Origin: Candidatus Omnitrophota bacterium | GTDB taxonomy: Bacteria > Omnitrophota > Gorgyraeia > Tantalellales > Tantalellaceae | DNA length: 64,000 nucleotides | NCBI GenBank assembly: GCA_015231405.1 | Contig: JADGBR010000005.1 | Coordinates: forward strand, 40,034-104,033 | Reading direction: 5' to 3' | Shown: positions 3,301 to 42,781 of the stretch, piece by piece | How positions within the stretch are numbered: position 1 is the stretch's first letter | Layout: each line of letters starts with the position of its first letter | Position numbers and translations under genes: made by a program | The notes under the pieces: generated by a model | What the model saw: the letters and a program-made list of their open reading frames with translations, nothing else | The model's database searches: none | What the model was told of the DNA's origin: nothing

Positions 3301-6300
3301 ACCGTAAGCCATATGGTCAACTCTTTCCTTGGGCGGATTCGGTTCAAGACGCGCCGTCGCTATCCTCTCGGTGTCATGGGTGCCAAGCGAGTTAAAGATC
3401 GTATCCCTCAGACGGGCAGGATACAGCCCCGCGAGCCCCTCTATAGCCCTTACGAATGTGCTGGGCTTCAATCCGTCTATGAATAACCGCGCTGACGCCC
3501 ACAGGAATGGATAGTTCATCGTGGAGTCAGAAGTTCCTTCGTTCATCTGTTCATAGGTATTACCCCAATCCGGTTCCGAAATAACAATGGCCTCCGGGTC
3601 GATCGCTTTCATCATGCCGTAAAGCTGCTTCCTGAATTTTGGGTGCAGCTGGCATTCGACGTCAAGCCTCCATCCGTCTATGCCACGAGCCGCTTTTCCG
3701 TCCACTGTCCCGGGGATCATCCATCTTTTCAGGATATTATTGACGTACTCCACATACCCGCGCGGATAATTCCCCTCGTTATCGCGTCTCAATTCGGGTA
3801 AAGCGTCGACATCTCCCCACCAGCCTTCCCATCCGAAACTACCGTCATCATTCCTCCACCACTTATACCAATCAAAAAACGGAGATGGTTCGCCTCTTTT
3901 CGTCTTCTCGATAATATCCTGTAACGCGAAAAATTGATTCCCTGTATGGTTGAACACCCCGTCCAGCACCACCTTTATCCCTTTCTCATGGGCTTCGCTT
4001 ATGAGTCGCATGAAAAGTTTATCGGCGCTTGTCCATACCCACTTATTCGGGTCAAGCGGATCCTCTGTCTCGATAAGCCTCATATCCCCTTCGGGATCGG
4101 GCCCGAACCACGGGTCTATATGGTGCAATGTTTTCGCGTTATACTTATGGTGGGTGTCGGCCCAGAAAACCGGGTTGAAATAAATGAACCCTATACCCAT
4201 ATCTTTCAAATAATCAAGTTCATCTATGACTCCCTGAAGATCGCCGCCGTATTCCCTCGTCCAAAGAATAGAGTCCGGGTGTTGGCCATGGCTTTCGGCC
4301 CATTTTTTCTCAAAGTCGGTCAGCTCATACCACGGTTTGTCCCAGGATACGGGGCCGATGGAATAAATCCGGCCATGTCCCGCGGGTATCTTATCCCGGG
4401 GTTTATTATTACCAAGCGACTTCTTGAAACGATCCACCATGATCTGGTACCCGACCTCTCCCGCGAATTCACCGAACGGCGAACTCTCGAGCGCGGGTTC
4501 GGGCGCCGCGAGCGCGACCCGCGCGTCGATGACCGCCGGCCGGGCCGCGAGTTCGGACGGAACAGGCTTCGGAGGCTGTACGCCGCGGAGTTTGTTCAGA
4601 TAATAGTGTATATCCGCCTTTATATATTTGACCCTGAACGGTTCGCCCGGTTCATAATGCCCCGCGGTTTTCCCGCCGGAAGCGTCGTCTCCGCCTGTCC
4701 AGAATATCCGGAAGATCGTGGCCCCTTCGGATAAAGGCGCCCCCCATCGGCCGTCGGGGAGCTCGCGTATAGCCGTATAATGGACATTCGCCCAGGACTT
4801 CTCGTCCGGAAGTAATGTGCCGGACCAGACGAAGCCTTTCGGAAGTTTTTCGGGGTTCGGCCCCGAAACGGCTATACCCGCGGGTATCCCTTCGTAGGCC
4901 CAGATCTGGTGGCCGTCGGTGAAGGGATCGTAATACTCCGTATCTTCGGGCGGGCATGCCTGCCTGCCGGCAAGGCAGGGGGCATCCGCCTTCGCCAAGG
5001 CTACGACGGACAGGTGGAGCTTGGGGCTTGGGGCTTGGGTTATCGTATCATCATCGGCTACGGACGCCACTTCCTTCAATTGAGAAAAAACAGTGAATGG
5101 GTTAATGGAAAGATCCTCCCGATAACGTTCGTAATATTCAAACCGAATAATCTCGTTGATATCGAACCCGCCGGCTAACAACCCTTCTGTCTCCGTACGC
5201 GTCTTATCGAAGTTTTTTTGCGCCCATTCCCAAATAGCGCTGGAAGAAAGGTCTATTCCTTCAAGTATCTCAAAATGAAGATGCGGACACGCTTCCGAAG
5301 CTATTTCCCCGATAATATCACCCTGTTTTACTTCTTCCCCGGAATTTAATTTTGAATATACATGGCGGTATAAACTAACCTTCCCCTTACCATGATCAAT
5401 AACAACAGAATTAAAACTTGTCCCGGCTGATTTTTGTCCGATAAACACTCTCCCCGGTAAAACTGCCCTGACAGAGGTGCCTACTTTTACGGGGTTCGTC
5501 TCTCCTGCCTCATTTTGATATTCATAAAAATCTATCCCCTCATGGTCAGGCCATGAATCCTGATACGACGCCCCTTCCCGCCCTGATCTCCAGTTCCACC
5601 TGGACCCATACCCGGTTCCCTTGCGAAACACAAACCTCTTAAATCCCGGCAGGTCTTTTGTATCAATAGGCAATACCGGAACCCCATGCCCTTCAAGCTG
5701 TTCCGTAAACATCTCAATATCACCGAGCGTCGCTTGAGGGCCGGCGAAATTTGTGTTGAAGAAATTCTGCCATCCGGGAATGCCGTGATAGCGGTTCTCG
5801 CCTACGTTGACGATAATGTCTATCCCCTCGGTGCCTACGGCGTTCCCGTCGTTCCAGTACTCCCACAGCTGGTCGCCGTAAAGGGCGAGAAGTTCATGTT
5901 TATCCCGGCCGAGATGGTCGATAAGCCTGAGGAGCCCTTCGGATTTCTGGAGGCCCCAGCTCTCAAAAACGACCTTATAAGAATCGGACAGAACGTCGTA
6001 AATAAAAGCCTGTTTGCCGCCGCATAATATGACCGGGATATTGGAAAGTAAATGGAGCTTACCTCTTTCGGCAAAATAACCTCTCATTATCTCGTAAAAC
6101 CTTTTATAGAACCACTCATTGTCCCCCTTGGTATTAAATACAAGCACCCCGCCTTTTTCCACATAACGCTCTACCGCGCCGAGCACCTCATCGTTCATAT
6201 CCGCGCCAAATTTAAGCAATGTATCGTCAATATCGGCGGATATTACAGGGGTTTTACCCGAACCCATAATGCGAGCCAGCCTGTCTTTTAACGCCTGGGC

Positions 6301-21300: not shown

Positions 21301-23106
21301 TTCGAACCATGAAAAGTATTCCGCGCTTTCGGCTTTGCCGGTCACCCTTATCTTTTCGGCCTGGCACCTTGCGAGTTCCAGAACGGCTGTGATCATTATT
21401 TCGGGGTTTTCGTGCAGGGAGAGCCCTTTCAATTCTTCGTCGTAGACCGTCCTTTCCCCGGCCCTTATATGCGCCCTGTCTATCATCCCGGCCGCCTTTA
21501 TTGCCCAATTGGCTATGTGGACGACCCGAGACGTCATGTATGCTGCCAGTTTTATATAGATCTCGTCCTTGTTCCTGCCGTTCTGTATTAGCGCCGAGTT
21601 TACCGCGGCGAACATGATAAAAAGCTTTTCGAGGTGCGCGAGCGAGTCGTCATCGGCTTTTTCCACATGTTTACGTACCATTTCAGCGAAACGCGGCCCG
21701 ATATTCCTTGAATATACCGGTTCACCTCCTTTATTGACGCTCTCGATATCCATTTTCATCATAGCCGGTATTACCTCGGCCATCTCGTCGGGCCTCATCA
21801 TTTGAAGATCTTCGCTCGCAGCAAGAAGCCTGGCCTCGATCTTTTTGGGAGCAAGCTCAGCCAGCGCCTTCAGGACTTCGGACGCGGGAGCTTTCGGATG
21901 ATCGGCAAGAGTTACGAGCGCTTCTATAAAACGCGCCTTACCAGCGGTCTTTTTATCCTTCGCTTTCAATATAGCTTTGACGGCGCTTTCATTAAGTTCG
22001 TTCCCTCGCCGATGCTCGGGGTTATCACTTATCTCCGCGTTGACGCTTGCGAGTAAAATATCCGGGAGCATCAGTTTCTCCGATACCTCATTAATTATCC
22101 CGATAGCCTCGACTGCAAGTTCCCTTACCCAAGCTCCGTCACCGCCACGGCCTTCGCCCCCCGCATAAGCCCATTTATAAAGATCAAGAGACAACGGCTC
22201 ACGGCCGTTCTCTATCAGCTTCGCGTCTATTTCGGCGAGCACCTTGAATATTTCGTTGAAACAATAATACCCCTCGAAGAATTTGTCCGGATTATACAGA
22301 TCCCTGATATATTCCCCGACCATCTTCTGCATTTCTATAACGCCAACCGGATCGCGTTCCGTCTCGATCAAGGCATAGTTTATTTTTTTAAGTGTCTCAA
22401 TGGCCATCGATCTCACCGTATCAACGTCCGTTAGCTTTTCCACAAAAATATCGAGAGACACATCCTCTTTTTTTCTTATGAGCGCCGCTACCATAAGGCC
22501 GAGGTCCCTTACTCCGTTAAAACGCACATCGCTGGAAGGATCGTAAAGATTAAGCCATTTTTTGTATAAAGTCTCTCTAACTCCAGAAATGAGACGGGGC
22601 ATAGCACCGTTATCCGCTTCAAGAGGCTCGGACAGTGATACTGCATCACCCGATACGGGCGCTCCGACACTTTTCCCTTTGGGCCGTATGGTAATATTTT
22701 CGCCGTTAGGGCTAATGACCACCTCGTGCCACCTGAGCGGATCTCTATGTTCAACGTCCAGTTTTGAGTAGATCGCAATGGGTATTACGAGGGAATCATC
22801 AGTGTCATATCTCTTTGCATCCCAATGAAAACCAACCACTTCGGATCTATTTGGAGCGATCTCAGGGTCGAACCCTTTCCGCCCTGCGAGCCCTTCCAAT
22901 TTCCTGCCATCCATGAATTCAAGTATCTTACCGACGACGAAAACATAGCTTTCCTCGCTGGGATCGTCGAAATTAGTCCAAACGGCAAGGGAATTTACCT
23001 CATTCCTATTTTTCAACACCCCCGGATCCGCCCAAACAATATCCTCAGCCACGAAAGTGACGAGTACTATTGAGGATATGATCTTAACTATAAGTTTTTT
23101 CATCAT
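376..23106 (-). CDS. giant (7576 aa) secreted/multi-pass membrane multidomain protein (mosaic of hydrolase, protease and phosphatase domains)
   Basis: Uninterrupted 22.7-kb ORF; N-terminal signal peptide MMKKLIVKIISSIVLVTFVAEDIVWA; multiple recognisable enzyme motifs (see domain features); many plus-strand ORFs inside are antisense artefacts. Confidence 0.85.
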   Translation of the reverse strand: MMKKLIVKIISSIVLVTFVAEDIVWADPGVLKNRNEVNSLAVWTNFDDPSEESYVFVVGKILEFMDGRKLEGLAGRKGFDPEIAPNRSEVVGFHWDAKRYDTDDSLVIPIAIYSKLDVEHRDPLRWHEVVISPNGENITIRPKGKSVGAPVSGDAVSLSEPLEADNGAMPRLISGVRETLYKKWLNLYDPSSDVRFNGVRDLGLMVAALIRKKEDVSLDIFVEKLTDVDTVRSMAIETLKKINYALIETERDPVGVIEMQKMVGEYIRDLYNPDKFFEGYYCFNEIFKVLAEIDAKLIENGREPLSLDLYKWAYAGGEGRGGDGAWVRELAVEAIGIINEVSEKLMLPDILLASVNAEISDNPEHRRGNELNESAVKAILKAKDKKTAGKARFIEALVTLADHPKAPASEVLKALAELAPKKIEARLLAASEDLQMMRPDEMAEVIPAMMKMDIESVNKGGEPVYSRNIGPRFAEMVRKHVEKADDDSLAHLEKLFIMFAAVNSALIQNGRNKDEIYIKLAAYMTSRVVHIANWAIKAAGMIDRAHIRAGERTVYDEELKGLSLHENPEIMITAVLELARCQAEKIRVTGKAESAEYFSWFEKNLETEDAKYRGWMAENYKIRLKESAWISGLFSMNKALIEQGLPERVGSFYKALENMRGEHPNRGDFYDSLSELCADLLEKGKRPLHLLAPEYEYEKDFSYRGNGRLMARVIGAEGFSFGDAGAKVVKFFIKHGLPMDDRILMEKCLEYASADEYLRGLEAKAWKAMNDGFDIKNDSDNFYAYLGAKLAGVSMTKGEYDTHMAPVRDITYGAPDGSNFKDIFNKRNKLKPLEVGASGVRELNTSEVSSRTIETHVSRLMDLKRKVDDLSILSEYFPGHKRLSVRNLYYLFKYEEAGKIQGDGKRAYVTEAMKSRSEEDMREELMANKEFVYRAAYELAARRIVDPALKDKCLVVMRDVVIAAVLERPGILDMITRGQGEDISEKMQYLKVLYEDNARDALETLGNGLGGGAEVKAELLALSEVFYKEYEKAKFVDTVVKHTFDLIPVGFLGTFQGRAGIDDCSFDMDKGLGFMRAYQEDALGYFVYRKGQLVGWIGLVWGKNDKGEKVLTVDTIESPVFDGEELILNFLKEMHKYALAEGGIGIAMPRDLWNSYNFSNHNTIGNSRPYREGDSIKITPLHGDSWNYFTKKFGRVGTDKFISHSMDSGEFVLLNMDEDPPQNFSAYADGKRKARRLLEEKKDWMHEAGHILEVLDRKEDQFWWQFMEWGVTLKTITQPKLGIKGFLNGYKDLGYASRWSLGFHSGHQNYMGDILPYSSYLLEGIESLSGVRWVLENMKKVPWNMMDERDRINRDLEILGFMEGILEALEKTADPEEAEETSETFEGGITRDEMLERLITLEDHELESPEVYQGTILATVEIEHRQEVYVLSVGHGAKVGQKVKASFHGREICGEIVKYVHSKNKDLSLIKLYPENPIRHFDILPIAGTDELPYTSEPGETERGDAVVVLAEYEEAARDIARAAKTIRAVDTEAEITRWVGDRHETIIIYNPACNRWGSCGVPVYVRGKLIGVFNSGDDEQDGVGLGYAGTSDAVTEFLSATEYAEVDTSLAGEAQKERDLAKFRECAHLVTFRDLMREGRDGRCEEPMYSDDQVERVKAILGKNNIKESDAYRSVLSAPGIDHRVKLELHDILIDEYIAGFYAAGAEAAGKRHFRYDDRETLSKIKDFFTDVLGRADIWGILLGYIEEGKVNVLEADHGLPPLFDAHASATYGINISASCRDDRRGAAIVHEAMSLAGSTDDAFNLRVEAAYAAGHTEGNAEIMGIKNELSEKGLTSGEGYAPGNATRDTRRERMAARYEELLKPYDDVKAEARRRRYPGEKEMYAPEVETGANAAEKYLKGLLRGGSEKRFIVVTSPLVRAQMEKWVFPGKDELLSRAMDVEDVNFRHIDKERFGEGSYFDKAEEIAKGSYPGTEGSGHNYPELVVGIGLGSVTDWAKLIGKKFSADVVIIPSALSTNAPFTGNAIIRDEDRDGGNYTLYSAATYAPRKVVVDPDFISLNPRGNTAGAGGLMSGWVALNDWRLALSEGEREDEAVRRKTEELLRDLVKSAPAIRSGGKEGLKAITYLNARSAALITEFGSERPRTGSEHILAETLEKLTRGRKILHGEMIGITTLIMSYIYTRMRSDVIQPEDLFAIARNAGVETDLGKIGLTREDLITALEGTRPKKGWYSFFDLTKVERKTAEEIVNKLFPDMSEGEKEVEGYLAPGHSITPDEFENALLVIFGVEEDQITRGTARYLEEEYPYTMFQSENNNKGPVYFRAGEIFAVNYGLKPWDENEKAMGKGSGGKMPGMRRKELLDRLLARYPYAIRMFEEATKYGEGGWWPYTYHPRTPEGYYYLAGAVGQLIALQANREIIRGRTYIDALSRNGIMANAALLLGAKDVVVIENDRQDIDTKNVSSPADSTVLPATMDLIGLNLALNGNGNKARVYYASVRHITEETFNEAVLSYSLRHFAMGYYDASTTEIVEAMRSDPKFFFGDWVPESERGKGLLASKRESLIKDIREKFSGIRWIIASGGSEPDSLGDIGETRKLIHDAFTLGMKAEGMVDIRHGWGYSYAKHGWEHINIYPTLVFRVADTDKLVDRPEADVEWLAHSKSEREAFFSKDQDVLLGRIRLRGMLGGLLRKVHKDDIDIEELSSALNSGSEWVFSEVLEELSEALYAPETLYPLPPYDELNYEANYNLATVLANTFPGHVVALARADVKDLGGNRHGRYMVKIDDDICIDLVYGEIEPEYKDRVLVISKKDLGPERDRIVAVFKPGNVENTVASSRSPVIGPTLIMLGIIVLSSAISAFCMVVPGGPAVICSAMANYLPQVSIALIAGAVLWIQRGGKTSEAPRPKRKNVDPGVIDAERVLDECEKIAPVFFEAFRKIYPADPGSCEGGAYTMAHVLAGRLGLAMDGVSPNRVEMEMVLRPGTGELPESRKKGTGHVVTVVWLGGKKAVFIDMTHGQFDPKYFNKMVSGRYDDSMKYLGLMNIAEGDDHFKNTAPAAGHTGDRAARDIAFARKTGVGGYMGYSGLPEQNWGIFTSDRRKRNCAVCETTEEKTKSLPGRILSAIEKTAPIPGEARNARGPVIGPMMIGMVFMVWLKKLADRSARAKHKKNRHGYGMSLRGFFINAVVTAVELGSFVLAVIQLKKWLASEKREKPPVIRTGGSFRRGGVTRLDLLNGIVLTVILTVALSLSYNYSPELFEKAAIGIGFILTAFPAAGLIMRMRDDPDSAVRVLRKLKPAAIPALALLMVPNTYLLVMGIGAIGFLMAWVIMSSYLGKNSLAGYIPGKIKRSSAIPFFHKVYGIEHQDGPLPTGGGYILDQLDTGVSIPGANAAMTGKASGQTGWDSEKLPGSVKYDGKQKVMTEISWMWYPEDRGENGPGYVVQLMLADSLDADHIPGTPLRYDIELAPYLFHGEFTRPVNAGSIELSFDELGRVLFGGTGWSASLLDGIEKAYPWLLSLLSEGCKAMAAKPVMPPVVIDPAVIDREVEAYVNGITGDGKMPTAEEFELALNLIFGLKNWETERGSVLYNGERYAFTRCSGTTRAEGPVYFRAGDMFVLNAAARSGSREPLVDLLLSKYRNVVKLYEEIAPEGHYGWFPYKAGKYISGRSYYLDSTIGQLIAMQAERKNIEGHTFIDAFSRNAVIGNAAFLLGASDVVCIENDPQAVDTRELGTRRSDKDFPQKTDLVTANLIINGNLERSRIYNTTIRNVPEREYKNAILAFSFEKFGYGYLETSYSEYLAAEKEQPERLRKYGDWLDETPRGKAIMATKRESLIGDIRRTFPGVNVIIASGGVEARKIDNYGITNKIIREAASLGMKLRELLEMNIDDEIWDDGSLIERKQQLVMPTLVFRPMTFNEKWAYSLETAKREWRDLLAIIGFLPKHKNTAWKDSKWGYLRDRVTRPLALIGVWAAMGLTVSAGIYVSSFGFILGYWAGLAIVMGGTYASVRFARYYVNTRGHAIYDTLAALMPGLFSPLMMEDETGAAADPRVPVEELISRIKRAFDAGEDWRRKAEAIELTLKRLAGDGEGQGQAAREWDKKHREFVRLTRALSPILNGDIKGSGRVIYVDDFSEWRYVMAGFNGGEGAVFLGCSFSPVQMMAMLSMLESRTKGIEGDGHYLTLKDKLIIAAVMGYPMAAFVYRPVDNGHIVYHEAIEAAITARGERMDVTEGYTSESVSVAEISRIVNGSDDAREETKELKESFIAYMSALRAYPGDNLNSEFFSWLAAVARYPDAEEHIKAYKPTSDAEAKFLAEREKNDIGRRMDEATRRFVAAVVKYPELRELIRDYYAKLINDVPEMADLLAVPAIFGRVVASEIKMEDVLCMAMMELLRRKYDAYTETTIKAVMEKYDGNTAAETIYSFLSFIWGVKSEKLIDLGHSDGVEYTHINVEDASAAMELIGEKFRDELREIVIRAADYIDTESLGTHLDRILLVVLEFAVSLSNGAPEALLSKLEDSSVAFSPSLFGKEWRGVIWKKAYRDALTGYGWNSYAVMKEFMRGDTQYELFIGKTIGDVVDDLASSNDDARSFAALEALEQKFMDLAETRQMRGIGELPESTYSLESMLIPAETSMKLAGALKKCILSEAHPFVSRTAMRLYYSIEEIQMPDKDKMFMALCRRVLPGIKDAPGRCRAARNIAEGCPGHYALYDDFINVLLGVVSRGRKIERGLNELAQNLRGRGARLLPAEKALAEFVITGVDLADLDGKASDENVTARELIALVVEAHKNGHDWRTAALRIEDELKRLAGTTPSAGGRKKRITEKYRDFAKLARDAIPILSGDKTPGSGGMAEGGGTDILTVQRFIGEGDMVSLAAQITRGMQGLPDAAARIEIDAIVRKLSRDLGEKLRAELIPYGGTPGSHEGRLALLALERLDHVVYIGDNSALDLSMKVKGGAVREPVKGGAYDKDIIRAKLAEISASSGLNITKDISSKDEAMEAVFGDDGTIYDFLKTATLCRNACPYDLTRYDTRPPLQFALEEGLYIRIGKDLFMTPVSESFRRHIVFTRNGDGTIGSAFEALIPGDNPARLDTACDKRSGIIDRIRGIYPLRGYIVPWKQKIYLTPGTYELYGVPLEFPESEIKNRGLVLYDYEEDGKRLSNVTPEAIAAIAARFGVTVRRVEEEIFSQLAEITAAIHNIKLLAHWVDKDGATQNEYGLHNFRLIVTERGIRLTLPGDVTSFQALGLIRSLASGEARFTDVKQLIPSDKRTVPPLARFIRALLPGEQQGIFLERYKEFNRTAELIREVSSIRSPWVFRDILTTKEIVILSADEKVTVFRYPLDGRGGYAVGIRNMSDSTIEGITPVELHTMGIDPGKEFELFDRSSYDVIKFMPGINVFSKGDALGRPEGSIYYKLAPREVHVFEIWPERGVLTEPAKTGTVSAGSPALKVEDVRVKVLGAGSNPGLSMPSDIPMDINAVHKVLAEGDNARKIAELARSLRLVCPHYPPIGDERTPLEYALNEGLVVKLGGTDYIKLGLSPLGARGDEFIFYAREMDGRLKFACNIRIPEGDVTKDRIGISEIDIKNDPVTGAYAGEGLYEPADRAQALKDRLARIMGSGKTPVISADIDDTLLKFGADMNDEVLGAVERYVEKGGVLVFNTKGDNEWFYKRFYEIMRGYFAERGKLHLLSNIPVILCGGKQAFIYDVLSDSYKVVFESWGLQKSEGLLRLIDHLGRDKHELLALYGDQLWEYWNDGNAVGTEGIDIIVNVGENRYHGIPGWQNFFNTNFAGPQATLGDIEMFTEQLEGHGVPVLPIDTKDLPGFKRFVFRKGTGYGSRWNWRSGREGASYQDSWPDHEGIDFYEYQNEAGETNPVKVGTSVRAVLPGRVFIGQKSAGTSFNSVVIDHGKGKVSLYRHVYSKLNSGEEVKQGDIIGEIASEACPHLHFEILEGIDLSSSAIWEWAQKNFDKTRTETEGLLAGGFDINEIIRFEYYERYREDLSINPFTVFSQLKEVASVADDDTITQAPSPKLHLSVVALAKADAPCLAGRQACPPEDTEYYDPFTDGHQIWAYEGIPAGIAVSGPNPEKLPKGFVWSGTLLPDEKSWANVHYTAIRELPDGRWGAPLSEGATIFRIFWTGGDDASGGKTAGHYEPGEPFRVKYIKADIHYYLNKLRGVQPPKPVPSELAARPAVIDARVALAAPEPALESSPFGEFAGEVGYQIMVDRFKKSLGNNKPRDKIPAGHGRIYSIGPVSWDKPWYELTDFEKKWAESHGQHPDSILWTREYGGDLQGVIDELDYLKDMGIGFIYFNPVFWADTHHKYNAKTLHHIDPWFGPDPEGDMRLIETEDPLDPNKWVWTSADKLFMRLISEAHEKGIKVVLDGVFNHTGNQFFALQDIIEKTKRGEPSPFFDWYKWWRNDDGSFGWEGWWGDVDALPELRRDNEGNYPRGYVEYVNNILKRWMIPGTVDGKAARGIDGWRLDVECQLHPKFRKQLYGMMKAIDPEAIVISEPDWGNTYEQMNEGTSDSTMNYPFLWASARLFIDGLKPSTFVRAIEGLAGLYPARLRDTIFNSLGTHDTERIATARLEPNPPKERVDHMAYGDYARVRNHSGYENGQVVLDGSYKLEAGPDEIDAARKVSKQLATYLLTAPGMPVIYYGDEIGLPGDNDPGCRRPMLWEETAAGKPDIELREHYRKMARLRNETPSLKYGSFEIVSADDERRLVVMLRRYKGENAFIFFNTSEVDQDISFLPGEGYAGASITDRVSGLAHNIRDGKLEFKIHAKGSAVFVMKKGKEAPAMNAAEQESATVKTGEIGNIIAIGGSRYGYQALEEIIKRLPADHPPVVAAEHLDHFAKLAGGDFARFIRESGRNIVLADNEYFGDSRTKDIILEKGMAVIAKFVYVLRDSEGWTVARVFRDETDCHQFEEAGAIDVLYSSAAELFRDKVIIIQTSGLGYDGVLGAEKAASAGAEIITQKVDPDGPFAGAGKMPSKVLEAVPGARNLPLEEIAGAVMGLVSEGVGIRAVAYEEVLGDALRLAGVDGVFSDFDGVDRDRDDRVASDDTIQARAGMSMNGVLNFTVTGLPWDDFMIRMGGIERASAIGADTPYRILTNTGADGRLLRKDGRTGDIEGFVRSVIGGDGAVEEVRKAAKKALLETIMAESIDNKRADHIRIKAEKGGVTIYLEDEVDLKPKRFDMARRLRVVIDELKRSGKISSSVEVVTSSGGVDVIAITKGASVMRMIKQFGLKRVVILADSVGTAKDPGNDRSMLALTRDDLRAAGIDWDVDLIKIYTGHEEGAEMPEGVIIAPRMAKESQPAITLYRAVSEAKENAEKKTGIEDLVADCVGDIRKEEELAWSLQSAFMRFTRRVGSEKMLIVAIEDGVTEKGFDKERFEKIVNEWKDSVVKLEGGDVEKKNMRRFLDNIVLTFFTDKADLEVKLDENGVSGKDMEGNYIFVYTGDASNASSYRGMGADVRPVMIRQNEKEKAFYPGYYYPLAEIVALSLNKELLNVDVNTFMAGLEKRGINLEELGIDDISNDPELGFMVFTILPKIERSPGGGKADRFEKFLRFMRSV
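1250..2000 (-). other. domain of the giant protein: HAD-IIB (Cof / sugar-phosphate phosphatase-like) hydrolase
   Basis: GVDGVFSDFDGV (DxDGT-type motif I) ... ADSVGTAKDPGNDRSM (GDxxND motif IV-like). Confidence 0.45.
2740..4480 (-). other. domain of the giant protein: GH13 alpha-amylase-family glycoside hydrolase
   Basis: All four GH13 conserved regions are present: VVLDGVFNHTG (I, DNA 3950-3975), GWRLDVECQ (II), VISEPDWG (III), FNSLGTHDTERI (IV), followed by a MPVIYYGDEIG C-terminal region. Confidence 0.75.
5240..5700 (-). other. domain of the giant protein: M23/LytM-family metallopeptidase
   Basis: DHEGIDFYEY (HxGxD) ... VVIDHGKGKVSLYRHV ... GEIASEACPHLHFEI (HxH); DNA 5258-5330 decodes to GEEVKQGDIIGEIASEACP. 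Confidence 0.65.
5800..6270 (-). other. domain of the giant protein: HAD-like hydrolase
   Basis: GSGKTPVISADIDDTLLKFG corresponds to HAD motif I DxDxT; GSGK is encoded at about 6262. Confidence 0.4.
11080..14600 (-). other. region of the giant protein holding at least 8 predicted transmembrane helices (two clusters)
   Basis: Hydrophobic 20-25-aa stretches such as LIMLGIIVLSSAISAFCMVV, VIGPMMIGMVFMVWL, FINAVVTAVELGSFVLAVI, LLNGIVLTVILTVALSLSY, AAIGIGFILTAFPAAGLIM, ALALLMVPNTYLLVMGIGAIGFLMAWVIM, LALIGVWAAMGLTVSAGIYVSSFGFILGYWAGLAIVM. Confidence 0.55.
14030..14290 (-). other. domain of the giant protein: transglutaminase-like (TGc) cysteine-protease core
   Basis: PGSCEGGAYTMAHVLAGRLGLAMDG ... 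GHVVTVVWLGGKKAVFIDMTHGQFD matches the TGc pattern C..(about 50 aa)..HxWxEVxL..GWxxxDPT. Confidence 0.4.
16240..17400 (-). other. domain of the giant protein: DHQS-like / glycerol-dehydrogenase-like (iron-ADH fold)
   Basis: RFIVVTSPLV...GIGLGSVTDWAKLIG...VVIIPSALSTNAPFTGNAI...HGEMIGITT resembles GldA/DHQS motifs GGGxxxDxAK, PTIASTDAPxS and HGExVA. Confidence 0.45.
18300..18820 (-). other. domain of the giant protein: chymotrypsin-fold protease-like region with Cys at the nucleophile position (3C-like GxCG)
   Basis: GHGAKVG...HGREICGEI (His), KDLSLIKL (like trypsin NDIALLKL, Asp), WGSCGVPVYV (GxCG instead of GDSGGP); the Cys codon tgc lies at about 18427-18429. Confidence 0.3.
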
Positions 23107-23386
23107 TTTTAGGAAGCTGTTAAAAGCATCTTGCTGCTTACTTTATTATTAGTTTACATATTATACTAATAAAGGCTTTAATTTACAACTTTATTGTATC
23201 TTAACAAGTTTGAGCAACCCTTTGATTGTAAAATGATGTAATAGTTCAGTTGTGGGAGCGATAAAGGTACCCCGACGTCATTGCGGGAAGGCCCGCAGGC
23301 CGACGAAGCAATCCCTACAAAAATATCCTAATACTTGCGAATTGAAATATCTATGATATACTCCGAGCAAAAAGATAGCATATCTT
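23107..23386. promoter_or_regulatory. AT-rich divergent intergenic region (likely promoter of the giant gene; left flank of the IS)
   Basis: 280-bp AT-rich non-coding stretch between the minus-strand giant-gene start and the plus-strand transposase start; no clear SD upstream of the giant-gene ATG. Confidence 0.3.
23270..23315. repeat. family D-like palindromic repeat (cgtcattgcg...cgacgaagcaatcc)
   Basis: ccccgacgtcattgcgggaaggcccgcaggccgacgaagcaatccc shares the arms of the 38863 and 42660 elements. Confidence 0.5.
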
Positions 23387-23587
23387 TTGACCGGTTGTAA
23401 GGACTGTAATCAATATGAAAAAGAGCTGAAGGAGTTAAAAGACCGGTATGCATTAATGGAGTATGAGCTAAAAAGCCTTAAATCAGAATTTTTCAAAAGG
23501 TCCCGCAAGAAAAAAGAGATTGATAAAGATCAGCCAAAGCCCCCGCCCAAAAAGTCCGGGAACGACGAAAAAAGATTAATCGAATAG
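23387..23587 (+). CDS. IS66-family transposase, N-terminal coiled-coil/basic fragment (frame-split)
   Basis: YEKELKELKDRYALMEYELKSLKSEFFKRSRKKKE...PPKKSGNDEKR resembles the leucine-zipper plus basic region of IS66 TnpC. Confidence 0.5.
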   Translation: MTGCKDCNQYEKELKELKDRYALMEYELKSLKSEFFKRSRKKKEIDKDQPKPPPKKSGNDEKRLIE

Positions 23588-23592
23588 TCGAA

Positions 23593-24603
23593 GTGCGTCC
23601 TTCAAAATGTCCCTACTGTGGAGGTACGGATATTACTGAACGCCAAGACACTAAAGATCATTATCAAAAAGACATTATTTTGCCTGAAGCGCAAGCCACC
23701 TTGTTCCGGAAACACAGATATTACTGCAATAGCTGCAGAAAGACGGTTATGGGAAAAGATGCCGATGAAATACCCAAAAGCAAAATAGGTCCGGTAGCCA
23801 AATCGTGGGCGACATTCCTAAAATACGGGATCAAGATATCGGATAGGGACGTCGCGAATATCCTTAAGATGCTAAGTTTAAAGGTAGTTCCCTCGTCGAT
23901 AGTCGGGTTCAGAGCTCAACTGAAGAAAGAGGCTTTGCCGATATACGAATTGTTAATAGCCTCATTGAAACGCGGCAAATTCATACATTTCGATGAAACC
24001 GGCGCAAAGATAAATGGAGAGGATGCGTGGTGTTGGAAGGCATCGAACAAGACGGTATGTATAACGCATACTGACCGGAGCCGAGGGCAAAGAGTCGTGG
24101 AAGAGATCCTTGGTCCGGAGTATGATGGCGTGCTGATAAGCGACTTTTTATCGGCGTATAACAAGATCAAAACGAAGGCCAAGCAGAAGTGTCTTGTACA
24201 TATTCTCAGGGATCTCAAGAAAGTGCTTGAATACTGGCGGGAAGAGGACGATGAGGTCATTAGGTATTGCGGTAGATTGAAAAGCATATTTGAGAACGCT
24301 ATTAAGCTGTATAAGGAATATCTGGACAAGAAGTGGGATAGAAAGTATTACACCAGGCGCAGGCTGATAACCGAGAGTCTTAAAGATTTCGCGTTCCCGA
24401 ACCCGGATAAGAAAATATTAAATAGATTCGCTAAAAGACTGGAAAAACACAATGTTAAGAAACTGGTTTATTATGAAATAGCGGACAGCATCGAAGACGC
24501 GATTGAGAGAGAAAAACAGATCAAAGCCGGTTCCCGCAAGAAGAAGATAGCTCTTATTGAATCGATGAACCCTACCTATAAAGACCTGTATTTTGAAATT
24601 TAG
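23593..24603 (+). CDS. IS66-family transposase core (zinc finger + DDE) fused to a GIY-YIG-like (UPF0213-type) C-terminal tail
   Basis: CPYCGG...CNSC zinc finger; IHFDETGAKI, VLISDFLSAY and CLVHILRDLKKVLE resemble IS66 DDE motifs; the C-terminus RFAKRLEKHNVKKLVYYEIADSIEDAIEREKQIKAGSRKKKIALIES matches the conserved GIY-YIG tail ...RRLxEHN...LVYYEEF..xEAxxREKQIKxxSRxKKxxLI. Confidence 0.55.
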   Translation: MRPSKCPYCGGTDITERQDTKDHYQKDIILPEAQATLFRKHRYYCNSCRKTVMGKDADEIPKSKIGPVAKSWATFLKYGIKISDRDVANILKMLSLKVVPSSIVGFRAQLKKEALPIYELLIASLKRGKFIHFDETGAKINGEDAWCWKASNKTVCITHTDRSRGQRVVEEILGPEYDGVLISDFLSAYNKIKTKAKQKCLVHILRDLKKVLEYWREEDDEVIRYCGRLKSIFENAIKLYKEYLDKKWDRKYYTRRRLITESLKDFAFPNPDKKILNRFAKRLEKHNVKKLVYYEIADSIEDAIEREKQIKAGSRKKKIALIESMNPTYKDLYFEI

Positions 24604-24613
24604 GTTATTTGTT

Positions 24614-24649
24614 GAGATCGCTTCGTCGCTTCGCTCCTCGCGATGACGG
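24614..24649. repeat. family D-like half element
   Basis: gagatcgcttcgtcgcttcgctcctcgcgatgacgg is the reverse-complement arm type of the family D element. Confidence 0.45.
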
Positions 24650-24728
24650 TGTTGCGTTCCATAACTGAACTATTACAAGAAAAGACAGGATTCACATTTC
24701 AAGGGTTGACACAAAGACTTTTTTATAT

Positions 24729-25538
24729 TTACAGGACCACTATGGATAGGGAATTGGCGTCGGCCAACTGTACTGCGGCTTGTTTTTGTAGGAAGAACAT
24801 CTTGCCGGACTCGATCGCCAGGCATTTAAATTTATTGTCGATGAGCCGGGTTATAGTTTCCATCCCTATGGTGGGGACGTCCCATCTCATGTCCTGCTGC
24901 GGCCGGCCGGCCTTGATCATCACGCAACCGGCCCCGGCTATTTTTCCGGCCCTCTCGATAACTGCGTTAGTGCCCTCGGCGGCTTCGACTCCTATGACTA
25001 CGCCGTCCCGGACTATCACGGTCTGCCCTATATCGTGGCCGGCTATTTCTTTGGCGATACGGAACCCGTAGGCAATATCCTTGTCCATCGTCCCTGAGGG
25101 GTTGACATTGCCGAGAACCCCGGGCACCGGGATAAGATGCCCCAAATACTCCGAAGGGTCTACGACTTGTACCCCTACCTTTTTAAGTTTTTCCGTAACC
25201 TCGCGAAGTATCGAATAATCCCTTTTATTTACGGATCTTGCGAGTATCTCACCGGACTCTTCGTCATATTTTCCATGGCTGCCGTATATCAACCCGCGGG
25301 ATATGGCTCCAAGGAGAGCTATATGCCTGAGCTGCTCCTTGAGCATGAAAAACATCACCTTAGCGAACTCGCCGAAGTTGAGCCAGTAGACCTTGTCTGC
25401 TTCCTTCTCGATGTCCGGCGAGGTCACCCCGTTGACGGCAAAAACCGGTACCTGTATGCCGCGGCTTTTAACAGCACGTATAAACTCAAGCGGCAACTCA
25501 CCCGCCCCCGCAGCTAATCCTATTTTTTTTATTTCCAT
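24729..25538 (-). CDS. lpxI: UDP-2,3-diacylglucosamine pyrophosphatase LpxI (DUF1009 family)
   Basis: MEIKKIGLAAGAGELPLEFIRAVKSRGI... matches the LpxI N-terminus; start set at ATG 25538, preceded by AAGGAA; the ORF-track start at 25610 would read through a repeat element. Confidence 0.7.
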   Translation of the reverse strand: MEIKKIGLAAGAGELPLEFIRAVKSRGIQVPVFAVNGVTSPDIEKEADKVYWLNFGEFAKVMFFMLKEQLRHIALLGAISRGLIYGSHGKYDEESGEILARSVNKRDYSILREVTEKLKKVGVQVVDPSEYLGHLIPVPGVLGNVNPSGTMDKDIAYGFRIAKEIAGHDIGQTVIVRDGVVIGVEAAEGTNAVIERAGKIAGAGCVMIKAGRPQQDMRWDVPTIGMETITRLIDNKFKCLAIESGKMFFLQKQAAVQLADANSLSIVVL

Positions 25539-25542
25539 ATTC

Positions 25543-25614
25543 CTTCGTTGTTCGTTGCCGGTTGTTTGTTGCCGGTTAACAGGCACCGGGCAACTGACAA
25601 CCGACCACAAACTT
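25543..25614. repeat. family C palindromic repeat (mirrored gttgccggttg heptad repeats)
   Basis: ttcgttgttcgttgccggttgtttgttgccggttaacaggcaccgggcaactgacaaccgaccacaaacttg; fills the fabZ stop to lpxI SD gap exactly. Confidence 0.7.
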
Positions 25615-38862: not shown

Positions 38863-38932
38863 CCCGTCATTGTGAGCGAAGCGATCTCTATATGGACTGC
38901 TTCGGGCACTTCGTGCCCCCGCAATGACGATC
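38863..38932. repeat. family D palindromic repeat
   Basis: cccgtcattgtgagcgaagcgatctctatatggactgcttcgggcacttcgtgcccccgcaatgacgatc; outer stem cgtcattg/caatgacg. Confidence 0.7.
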
Positions 38933-40968: not shown

Positions 40969-42649
40969 TAGCCCCCCAATTCAAGTCCTCATTGGGGATC
41001 TGGTCGTCGTATTTCGACTCCTTTACGCCGTATTCCTCAAAAATGGCTATTATCTCGTCATACTCGAGCTCTTCCCTTTGTAAAAGTTCGTTCGCGAAAC
41101 GGTCAAGGATATCGCGCCTCGTCTCAAGCGTTTTCATGACCTCATCGAGACACTTCCTTATGAGGCTGTTCGTATCGTTGTTAAGGGTCATCTTGATCTG
41201 TTCGGACAGCTGCTCCGGAGGTATGCCCGTGTAATCACCTATGTAGCCGGACGCCCCCATGCCGAGCGTCCATACCATCGCGTGCGCCATTTTTATCGCG
41301 TTATTGAAATCCGAGCTGACGCCGGTAGTGGTAGTGTTATATTTTGTCTTCTCCGCGGCGTATCCCGCGAGTTTGGTCATAATATCCTGGAGAAGCTGAG
41401 TTTTGCTCCTCGAATGGAGCTCTTCCCTTTCGGGTGACCATACGACCCCGAGCGCGCCCCTTCTGGGGATAATACTGGCTTTAAAAACGGTCTTCGACGG
41501 GGCCTTCAGATAAGTTATTATCAGGTGCCCTGCCTCGTGATAAGCCGTCATCTCCTTTTCTTTCGGGGTGACGGTCAGCCTGTGTTTTATGCCCAGGTCA
41601 ACCCTTTCGAAAGCCTCGCTGATCTCCTTAAGGCCTATCGCTGATTTTTTATATCTCGTGGCTATGATCGCGGATTCCTTGACTATGTTTGATATGTCGG
41701 CGGGACTCTTCCCGACGGCTCTTCTCGCCAGGCGACCCGTATCCAGGTCTGTCTCTGCCTTCACCTTTTTCAGATAGAATTTGAAGAGCTCTTCCCTGTC
41801 GGTCTGAGAGGGTTTAGAGATGAGTATCTTCCGGTCAAACCTGCCGGGCCGAAGAAGAGCCTCGTCCATATGTCCCTCGAAAGCGTTTGTCGCGCCTATA
41901 ACGACGATGTTATCGTCTTTGCCCTTCAGCCCGTCCATCTCGGCCAGCAGCTGGTTCAATGTGCTGTTCGTCTCCTGCCCGCCCCCGAAACTGAAAGTCC
42001 TCTGACGGCCTATCGCGTCGATCTCGTCTATAAAGATTATGCAACCTCCGTAACCGTAGCTGAGATCCCTGGCTTTCTGGAAAAGTTTCCTCACCCTGGA
42101 GGCTCCGACACCGACAAAAACCTCGACGAACTCGCTTCCCGACATGGATATGAACGGCATATTCGCTTCTGTAGCGATCGCCTTGGCAAGATATGTCTTC
42201 CCGCATCCCGGGGGCCCCAGCATCAGAAGCCCCTTAATGACGCTCCCTCCCATTTTCTGCACGTTGGCCCGATCCTTGACAAGCTGAACTATCTCAAGCG
42301 CCTCCTGCTTAGCGTCCTGCATACCTATAACGTCATTCCAGGATATCAGGACATCTTTACCTTTAATAGGCGCCTTATCGAGTTTCGCGAACCCGCCCTG
42401 CAAAAATGTGAGGTACATGAAAACGAAAATGGCCGCGTGAATACCTGCCATGAGGAACTGCATCGGTATCGTCGCGATCGTCATCTTCCTGTAGAAAGAC
42501 TCGAGAGAAGCCAGCCCTATTACAGTACCTACGAGCAACAGTATCACTACCAAACTGATCCAAATGATCATCTGATACTGTCGAAAATACATTTTCCAAA
42601 GTCTTCCGGTCATCTTATTGCTCCTTTTTTGAAAATTCAGTTGTTTCAA
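40961..42649 (-). CDS. FtsH-family membrane AAA+ ATPase / M41 zinc metalloprotease (atypical N-terminus)
   Basis: Two N-terminal TM helices; Walker A GPPGCGKTYLAKAIA; Walker B IIFIDEIDA; zinc motif TAYHEAGHLI; 8-nt overlap with the downstream lipoprotein gene. Confidence 0.75.
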   Translation of the reverse strand: MKQLNFQKRSNKMTGRLWKMYFRQYQMIIWISLVVILLLVGTVIGLASLESFYRKMTIATIPMQFLMAGIHAAIFVFMYLTFLQGGFAKLDKAPIKGKDVLISWNDVIGMQDAKQEALEIVQLVKDRANVQKMGGSVIKGLLMLGPPGCGKTYLAKAIATEANMPFISMSGSEFVEVFVGVGASRVRKLFQKARDLSYGYGGCIIFIDEIDAIGRQRTFSFGGGQETNSTLNQLLAEMDGLKGKDDNIVVIGATNAFEGHMDEALLRPGRFDRKILISKPSQTDREELFKFYLKKVKAETDLDTGRLARRAVGKSPADISNIVKESAIIATRYKKSAIGLKEISEAFERVDLGIKHRLTVTPKEKEMTAYHEAGHLIITYLKAPSKTVFKASIIPRRGALGVVWSPEREELHSRSKTQLLQDIMTKLAGYAAEKTKYNTTTTGVSSDFNNAIKMAHAMVWTLGMGASGYIGDYTGIPPEQLSEQIKMTLNNDTNSLIRKCLDEVMKTLETRRDILDRFANELLQREELEYDEIIAIFEEYGVKESKYDDQIPNEDLNWGANA

Positions 42650-42659
42650 CCGCGACTAT

Positions 42660-42740
42660 CGTCATTGCGAGCGAAGCGAAGCAATCTCTCCGATATCATG
42701 TGGATTGCTTCGTCGGCCTCAGGCCTCCTCGCAATGACGG
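42660..42740. repeat. family D palindromic repeat
   Basis: cgtcattgcgagcgaagcgaagcaatctctccgatatcatgtggattgcttcgtcggcctcaggcctcctcgcaatgacgg; 11-bp outer stem gtcattgcgag/ctcgcaatgac. Confidence 0.7.
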
Positions 42741-42781
42741 ATCAGAACCCATAATTCCGCTATCACACATTTACAGCTGTT

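Follow-up and report, generated by a model that had tools for sequence, protein, structure and literature searches.

The 64,000-nucleotide stretch of DNA analysed here (the window), from a Candidatus Omnitrophota metagenome-assembled genome (MAG), contains at positions 23238-24676 a 1,439-bp element that is very probably a non-autonomous, recently crippled copy of an IS66-family insertion sequence (IS) of the ISBst12 group, carrying two internal deletions. One deletion breaks the frame of the transposase, and the other joins what remains of it to the end of a GIY-YIG nuclease gene resembling the published ssn genes. The unit is enclosed by the terminal inverted repeats (TIRs) of the IS, and just inside these lie two inverted hairpins with a CGTC tag, which we call family D modules. 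The locus itself is ordinary decay of an IS copy.

Two plus-strand open reading frames (ORFs) occupy the interval from the 5' end of a giant ORF on the minus strand (376-23106) to a second ORF on that strand (24729-25610). ORF-a (23387-23587) encodes 66 aa, and ORF-b (23593-24603), which is open from ~23530 and runs in the -1 frame relative to ORF-a, encodes 336 aa. A reading made earlier from the letters alone (the sequence-only reading) had recognized here a disabled IS66-family transposase in two frames that lacks its usual C-terminal region, and this description is borne out, as both ORFs give IS66-family matches, the frame is broken and the region of the catalytic Glu is gone. Pfam PF03050 (DDE_Tnp_IS66) matches ORF-b with an E value of 6e-20, over profile positions 6-247 of 284. 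Because the transposase is truncated, it reaches 138 bits with the NCBIfam IS66 model, short of the cutoff of 180, and the zf-IS66 match in ORF-b is weak. The N-terminal segment (23387-23554, plus strand, frame mod3 = 2) begins at a TTG codon (MTGCKDC...) and includes a coiled-coil region; it was placed by BLASTP, tblastn and the starts of homologs (MSGCKDC or MTGCRDC), which are the counterpart of the TTG at 23387. A second frameshift, at the ATG at 23415, was ruled out because the homolog starts correspond to the TTG. The middle segment (23555-24445, plus strand, frame mod3 = 1) carries the PF03050 and zf-IS66 matches and holds the zinc finger (CPYCG...CNSC), the first and second aspartates of the catalytic triad (DETG and SDFLSAYN) and a CLVHILRD motif.

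Intact homologs, mostly from Omnitrophota, are single ORFs of ~450 aa with 50-60% identity to the window protein. A 21-sequence alignment shows two invariant groups of residues: G59, F61, G62, H63, G65, F67 and R68 in one, and H381, N382, N383, H384 and E386 in the other. The D, D, E triad is incomplete in the window: both aspartates are kept, and the invariant HNNHAEQQIR stretch, whose NNHAEQQIR region carries the third catalytic residue (Glu), is deleted and has no counterpart.

The frame is broken by the loss of 10 codons and one further nucleotide, rather than by an indel in a homopolymer or at a site of programmed frameshifting. When the window was aligned by MAFFT to four complete elements (relatives are given here as numbered loci; these are L002, L003, L004 and L018), a 31-nt gap opened between 23554 and 23555 on the plus strand, and it is exactly here that homology in the upstream frame stops and homology in the downstream frame begins. 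The window reads ...PPPKK | (F)RERRKKINRI... where homologs read ...PKKKGGLFGHxGWFRxKPKKIxxI, so that the missing stretch encodes GGLFGHxGW, with G59, F61, G62, H63, G65 and part of F67. The sequence-only reading had instead let the frames meet at gacgaaaaaag (23565-23575) and had proposed programmed -1 slippage or an indel in the A run; the A6G run actually occupies 23568-23574, 13 nt 3' of the deletion junction, and both proposals fail. In elements of the IS3 and IS1 type, programmed -1 frameshifting uses a slippery X_XXY_YYZ heptamer in the upstream frame. The window resembles these in having two overlapping transposase frames and an A-rich run; both frames are open over 23530-23587, and one Lys-tRNA could slip on GAA-AAA-A. 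However, the run encodes the conserved Lys-Lys of the downstream frame, and because the upstream frame reads it as GAA-AAA-AGA, the A_AAA_AAG heptamer does not have the phase that tandem slippage requires. Furthermore, the retrieved relatives are uninterrupted single ORFs at this point, with no conserved frameshift in the family, and a joined product would still be without the catalytic-Glu region. Ribosomal or transcriptional slippage that joins ORF-a and ORF-b into a working transposase is thus extremely unlikely.

The second deletion explains the C-terminal tail of ORF-b. Pfam PF01541 (GIY-YIG) matches the last ~40 residues only weakly and below threshold (E 0.04; 0.013 with the tail alone), but the GIY-YIG origin of the tail that had been proposed from the letters alone is confirmed by tblastn, which gives 90% identity over 52 aa (E 5e-26) to residues 45-96 of the GIY-YIG gene in L001, the closest relative (JGI 3300047491). 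Homology to the IS66 transposase ends in the window at ...FAKRLE(K)H, whereas relatives run ~90 residues further. Nucleotide identity to L001 is 92.9% between window 23695-24445 and L001 1-751, and 91.3% between window 24443-24649 and L001 1166-1372, with the transposase side ending at L001 751; compared with L001, 417 bp (139 codons, in frame) have gone. The junction (24442-24452, plus strand), at which transposase ...RLE(K/R)H passes into ssn ...KYNVKK, lies within an imperfect microhomology, GAAA.A.A.AA, with GAAAGATATAAGG on the transposase side and GAAAAAATACAATG on the GIY-YIG side. The last ~50 codons and the stop of the GIY-YIG gene (24453-24603, plus strand) follow. This tail retains the Glu of REKQIK and is without the GIY and YIG tyrosines and the Arg.

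It had been suggested that the locus was either a novel transposase-GIY-YIG fusion or an IS that had struck a resident GIY-YIG gene. Neither fits the relatives, in which a complete GIY-YIG gene (PF01541, 94-96 aa) lies inside the TIRs, 11-17 nt 3' of the transposase (L001, L002/L007, L004 and L018); in the metagenome loci L084 and L154 the transposase is likewise followed by a GIY-YIG gene. The window product is an in-frame deletion derivative of this arrangement. Could the resulting chimera nevertheless have been domesticated, as a selected fusion with a new function such as DNA binding by the zinc-finger/DDE remnant? No further lesions interrupt the 336 codons of ORF-b, and NCBI annotates a product at the locus (MBF0216147.1, 284 aa, "MAG: transposase [Candidatus Omnitrophica bacterium]") which is 100% identical to the window. 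The Nei-Gojobori omega against L001 is also low, at 0.11 for 250 transposase codons and 0.085 for 52 tail codons. However, this protein, found on one 128-kb contig, is the sole member of its 90%-identity cluster among ~15 billion proteins, and its tail is shared by no other match; apparent matches with 96% coverage are alignment run-on. In addition, the GIY and YIG tyrosines, the Arg and the DDE Glu are absent, the upstream part is frame-broken, and the leader between the left hairpin and the transposase start (23317-23386, plus strand), although alignable by MAFFT to that of L003, has not kept the AAGGAG Shine-Dalgarno sequence of L003. A low omega is expected anyway after recent inactivation: most of the divergence from L001 would have arisen while both genes were functional, so that the lesions are recent relative to it. 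We therefore regard a domesticated fusion as very improbable and favor a decayed IS copy.

The ends of this copy are well defined. An outer inverted repeat, TGTAATAGTTCAGTTGTGG, at 23237-23255 and 24659-24677 (19 nt, 95% complementary) encloses the whole unit and is the true IS end, which sets the element at 23238-24676. The sequence-only reading had placed it at 23270-24660; a terminal inverted repeat was indeed found, although not at those boundaries. The left TIR core (GTAATAGTTCAGTTGTGG, 23238-23255, plus strand) has the terminus GTAAYAGTT(C/T)AGC and pairs with the right core (24659-24676, minus strand); the TIRs begin GTAAYAGTTCAG..., and the pattern GTAATAGTTCAGTT occurs within the window at these two sites only. 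A set of 69 genome-derived relatives contained the same terminus, GTAAYAGTT(C/T)AGC, at more than 30 loci, the family termini being GTAAYAGTTCAGC. Aligning the two ends had been proposed as a check for TIRs and 8-bp target duplications; the TIRs are there, and perfect 8-bp duplications abut the terminus in L008 (CACAATTA), L016 (CTATTAAC) and L034 (CTGCTGGG), though not in the window.

These ends, together with the ~450-aa transposase, resemble those of ISDge4, a member of the ISBst12 group with the TIR GTAACTGCTCAGCA, a 449-aa transposase and an 8-bp direct repeat (PMC12898284), and place the lineage in the ISBst12 group of IS66. Like that group, the lineage has a DDE_Tnp_IS66 transposase with an N-terminal coiled coil and a zinc finger, TIRs starting with GTAA and 8-bp target duplications in relatives. 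The transposase is of the single-ORF type, and neither the window element nor the relatives have tnpA- or tnpB-like genes. Unlike that group, the window copy is frame-broken and has lost its catalytic-Glu region, most relatives have an extra upstream gene encoding a DUF6788 protein, one subset of relatives has an ssn-like gene, and a subset has CGTC hairpins just inside the TIRs. Relatives are typically 1.9-2.0 kb with the DUF6788 gene, and those bearing ssn are 2.27-2.30 kb.

The DUF6788 gene precedes the transposase in most relatives; neither the window copy nor L003 has one. Loss of this gene from the window copy was considered and ruled out, as the intact L003 is also without it and has a leader that aligns with that of the window. 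Where present, the gene (PF20586, ~120 aa) lies directly 5' of the transposase (L002, at 3635-4000, L004, L006, L009, L013-L016, L038, L040-L042 and others), with overlap between its stop and the start of the transposase (TAAGTG) in L002 and L004. The DUF6788 gene has the look of a conserved accessory gene in the ISBst12-like lineage.

The two family D modules of the window element are complete and in inverted orientation, at 23276-23316 (plus strand) and 24613-24648 (minus strand). The left module reads CGTC-ATTGC-GG-[GGCC CGCA GGCC]-GACGAA-GCAAT-CCC and is of the type that brackets solo ssn-like genes. The right module (CGTC-ATCGC-GAGGAGCGAAGCGACGAA-GCGAT-CTC) has a compensatory ATCGC/GCGAT outer stem and is identical to the module of L001. 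The sequence-only reading was correct that pieces of family D occur on both flanks; they are, however, whole modules rather than fragments, and they lie within the IS ends, beginning 29-39 nt inside the tips. It had also suggested insertion into a REP-like (repetitive extragenic palindromic) element. Under this explanation an IS66-type element would have entered an existing palindromic family D repeat, or a resident GIY-YIG gene flanked by such repeats, and indeed the inverted modules on the two sides look like the arms of a gene-less palindrome at 42.66-42.74 kb, and inverted D modules bracket solo ssn genes too. The order is, however, TIR core, D, genes, D', TIR core, so that the D arms lie inside the terminal repeats of the IS, which argues that the IS was not inserted into a REP-like element. 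Both ends of L002, L003, L004, L005, L010 and L018 have equivalent modules in this subterminal position, a layout thus repeated in unrelated genomes; relatives with a target duplication end at GTAA, and no further IS ends separate the D arms from the genes. An insertion of this kind therefore has very little probability, and we retain the reading in which the hairpins are part of the IS ends.

The hairpins are not a constant part of these ends. L034 has a module at its right end only, and modules are absent from the ends of L008, L011, L013, L015, L016 and L031. The idea that the D arms are the IS's own homogenised long terminal repeat is only partly tenable, as the inner stems differ between the two ends in L004, L005 and L010 and L034 is one-ended. 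In a rough neighbour-joining tree, hairpin-bearing elements fall in more than one clade. The unequal inner stems, the single module of L034 and this tree together suggest repeated acquisition or loss of ssn and hairpins in the IS lineage.

In general, the modules are built as (C)GTC-ATTGC-GA-[variable GC-rich stem-loop]-GAA-GCAAT-C, and 223 unique modules contained 201 different inner segments. Compensatory variants of the outer stem are ATCGC/GCGAT (the right arm in the window), ATTAC/GTAAT and ACTGC/GCAGT. The pattern used to search for modules is expected to give ~0.5 chance matches per 64 kb. A search of 23100-24800 against Rfam returned no family at E <= 1. The modules share with CGTC-tagged REPs an unpaired CGTC tag, a stem starting with A-T pairs, frequent inverted pairs (with an inverted dimer at 42660-42739) and an intergenic location. 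CGTC-tagged REPs, which include Neisseria dRS3 and Rickettsia RPE, comprise four families with 8-9-bp stems and 4-5-nt loops, and no dedicated enzyme or transposase was found for them (Di Nocera et al. 2013, PMC3733652). In contrast, the modules described here are two-tiered and 24-64 nt long.

A nuclease partner for such hairpins has been described in Neisseria meningitidis. SsnA is a 94-aa single-domain GIY-YIG enzyme that binds the NTS hairpin CGTCATTCCCGCGMAVGCGGGAATCYRG as single-stranded DNA (ssDNA) only and cleaves ~3 nt 5' of it; the GTC tag matters for cleavage, and the C after the palindrome for binding (Chenal et al. 2025, PMC11893778). At least one flanking SRM repeat accompanies 71% of ssn homologs, and 42% have one on both sides; in describing the NTS-ssnA-NTS arrangement the authors merely remarked on its IS-like architecture (PMC11893778). 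The intact GIY-YIG genes of our relatives match PF01541 at E 5e-17, are single-domain proteins of 94-96 aa, and have Y9, Y20 and E67 at the spacing (11 and 47 residues) of SsnA Y6, Y17 and E64; the nearest solved structure is that of the UPF0213 protein BH0048 (1zg2, E 6e-5). The window tail, in which residues ~45-96 are left, does not by itself amount to such a protein. As in the Neisseria system, the gene lies between inverted hairpins made of (C)GTC and a palindrome that starts and ends with AT and is followed by C. Judged by this spacing and the inverted-hairpin architecture, the gene matches the Ssn family of single-domain ssDNA nucleases and is a putative member of it. Differences are that the window retains the C-terminal half of the gene only, that in the modules the outer stem is ATTGC/GCAAT, the internal loop is GA-rich and the inner stem varies, and that the unit here is inside a DDE transposon.

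The association of gene and hairpin extends well beyond the IS. The 96-aa GIY-YIG protein family has at least 8,000 matches, and the gene is mostly solo, wedged among housekeeping genes, for example between atpA (ATP synthase alpha) and atpG (gamma) in L082 and between a leuA-like gene and valS in L076. Solo genes are bracketed by inverted D modules (e.g. L078, L082 and L076), with the downstream module often starting at the stop codon. Among 80 metagenomic ssn-like loci, scored for a correctly oriented module within 150 nt, a D module was found upstream in 55 of 72, an inverted D module downstream in 47 of 68, and modules on both sides in 36 of 60. An IS66-type transposase adjoined the ssn-like gene in only 2 of the 80.

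As a separate observation, in L082 (3001-3291, GCA_026387335.1), L076, L078 and L073 the ssn-like gene and its two hairpins form compact inserted units of ~375 bp, and another insertion site of such units is between GT9 glycosyltransferase genes. These ~375-bp units behave as a selfish cassette. A comparable organization is known in REPtrons, or RAYT-REPIN systems, in which an HUH tyrosine transposase is paired with GTAG-tagged REPs. Both have a small nuclease or transposase gene between inverted copies of a hairpin repeat that is dispersed in the genome; the system described here differs in pairing a GIY-YIG nuclease with CGTC-tagged hairpins.

Several observations weigh against the interpretation of the locus as a recently crippled IS copy with Ssn-type hairpins. 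There is no intact IS copy and no intact ssn within the 64-kb window, and the window ends lack an 8-bp target duplication, the flanks being AAAATGAT and AAGAAAAG. The sequence comes from a MAG, and both deletions are known from the assembled sequence rather than at the level of reads. The low omega and the lack of further stops are compatible with selection on the remnant as well. Finally, the published SRM pattern, HGTCWYN(0-2)YYVSBRHN(0-5)WNVSBRGN(0-2)RNCYNB, fits none of the five window modules while it does fit the NTS control; what the window modules have in common with SRM is the GTC tag, the AT...AT ends of the palindrome and the following C.

We propose that the parent of the window copy had the layout TIR core, CGTC hairpin, transposase (~450 aa), ssn-like GIY-YIG gene (96 aa), inverted CGTC hairpin, TIR core. 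One deletion removed 31 nt in the N-terminal region, shifting the frame and eliminating the invariant motif. The other removed 417 bp in frame between short similar sequences, taking with it the C-terminal ~90 codons of the transposase (NNHAEQQIR and the catalytic Glu), the intergenic spacer and the first ~44 ssn codons with the GIY and YIG tyrosines and the Arg. The resulting ORF of 336 codons, in this view an accidental chimera, has neither a full DDE triad nor a GIY-YIG active site, and the window copy is most likely inert by itself. Because both IS ends are retained, it could at most be mobilised in trans by the transposase of an intact relative. In single-stranded form, its two hairpins could still be a substrate for binding or cleavage by an Ssn protein encoded elsewhere. 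Direct cutting of the IS tips by Ssn is unlikely, since SsnA cuts ~3 nt 5' of the hairpin, which would correspond to 26-40 nt inside the tips; release of the IS by Ssn is unlikely for the same reason.

The locus carries little weight in itself, as the split frames, the nuclease tail and the flanking palindromes all have mundane explanations. The family D repeat can now be placed with the CGTC-REP/SRM hairpins, which were tied to Ssn ssDNA nucleases only in 2025. An ISBst12-like IS66 element with ssn and CGTC hairpins inside its TIRs, often also with DUF6788, is a modestly new combination of two known systems. In the literature searched we found no description of an IS66 element carrying ssn/GIY-YIG and hairpins, and the term IS66 does not occur in the main text of PMC11893778. 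For the spread of CGTC/SRM repeats, for which Di Nocera et al. found no dedicated transposase and Chenal et al. remarked only on an IS-like architecture, carriage by IS66 offers a candidate route: transposons of this family with ssn and hairpins inside their ends are a concrete possible means by which the Ssn/hairpin system could pass between genomes. A stronger proposal is that, in the ISBst12-like lineage of Omnitrophota and the candidate phyla radiation (CPR), ssn and hairpins are not mere cargo and the DDE transposon and the Ssn/hairpin system may cooperate. Such cooperation might follow from the fixed subterminal position of the hairpins at both ends in several sublineages, with the nuclease between them, but we consider it rather unlikely. 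If it were true, the IS might be a horizontal vehicle that seeds ssn and hairpins into new genomes, or else Ssn might nick the IS ends when they are single-stranded and so affect how the element transposes or replicates, and the window copy would be a deletion derivative of such a hybrid.

Elsewhere in the window, a gene-less element at 42629-42775 contains two inverted D modules 10 nt apart, at 42660-42689 (plus strand) and 42700-42739 (minus strand), with 16 nt between the module cores (42661-42686 and 42703-42738). Degenerate sequence similar to the TIR cores of the IS (TGTGATAGCGGAATTATGG versus TGTAATAGTTCAGTTATGG) lies on either side, and the element is either a MITE-like (miniature inverted-repeat transposable element) relic of the IS or an SRM dimer. 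A solitary CGTC hairpin, CGTCATTGCGGGGGCACGAAGTGCCCGAAGCAGTCCAT, lies at 38892-38929 on the minus strand.

A further imperfect inverted repeat lies outside the IS ends, at 23215-23232 (CAACCCTTTGATTGTAAA) and 24691-24708 (TTCACATTTCAAGGGTTG), with 78% complementarity; the left flank of L002 has CTTTGATT in common with it. This outer repeat could reflect target preference, a nested element or chance. In L008, extra TIR-core copies at 1941-2015 and 3900-4244, beside a complete element with a target duplication, suggest adjacent solo ends or MITE-like derivatives. In L018, the same 54-bp stretch (a hairpin module and TCTAATCCAGGCCCGTT) is present outside and inside the left TIR core, at 2-55 and 87-140. 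This repetition, which falls at the end of a contig, reflects either a duplication or an artefact of assembly. The minus-strand ORF to the left of the IS remnant (376-23106) is uninterrupted over 7,576 aa, with its start codon 132 bp from the left end of the remnant, and its product presumably belongs with the giant multidomain proteins that have been reported for Omnitrophota.

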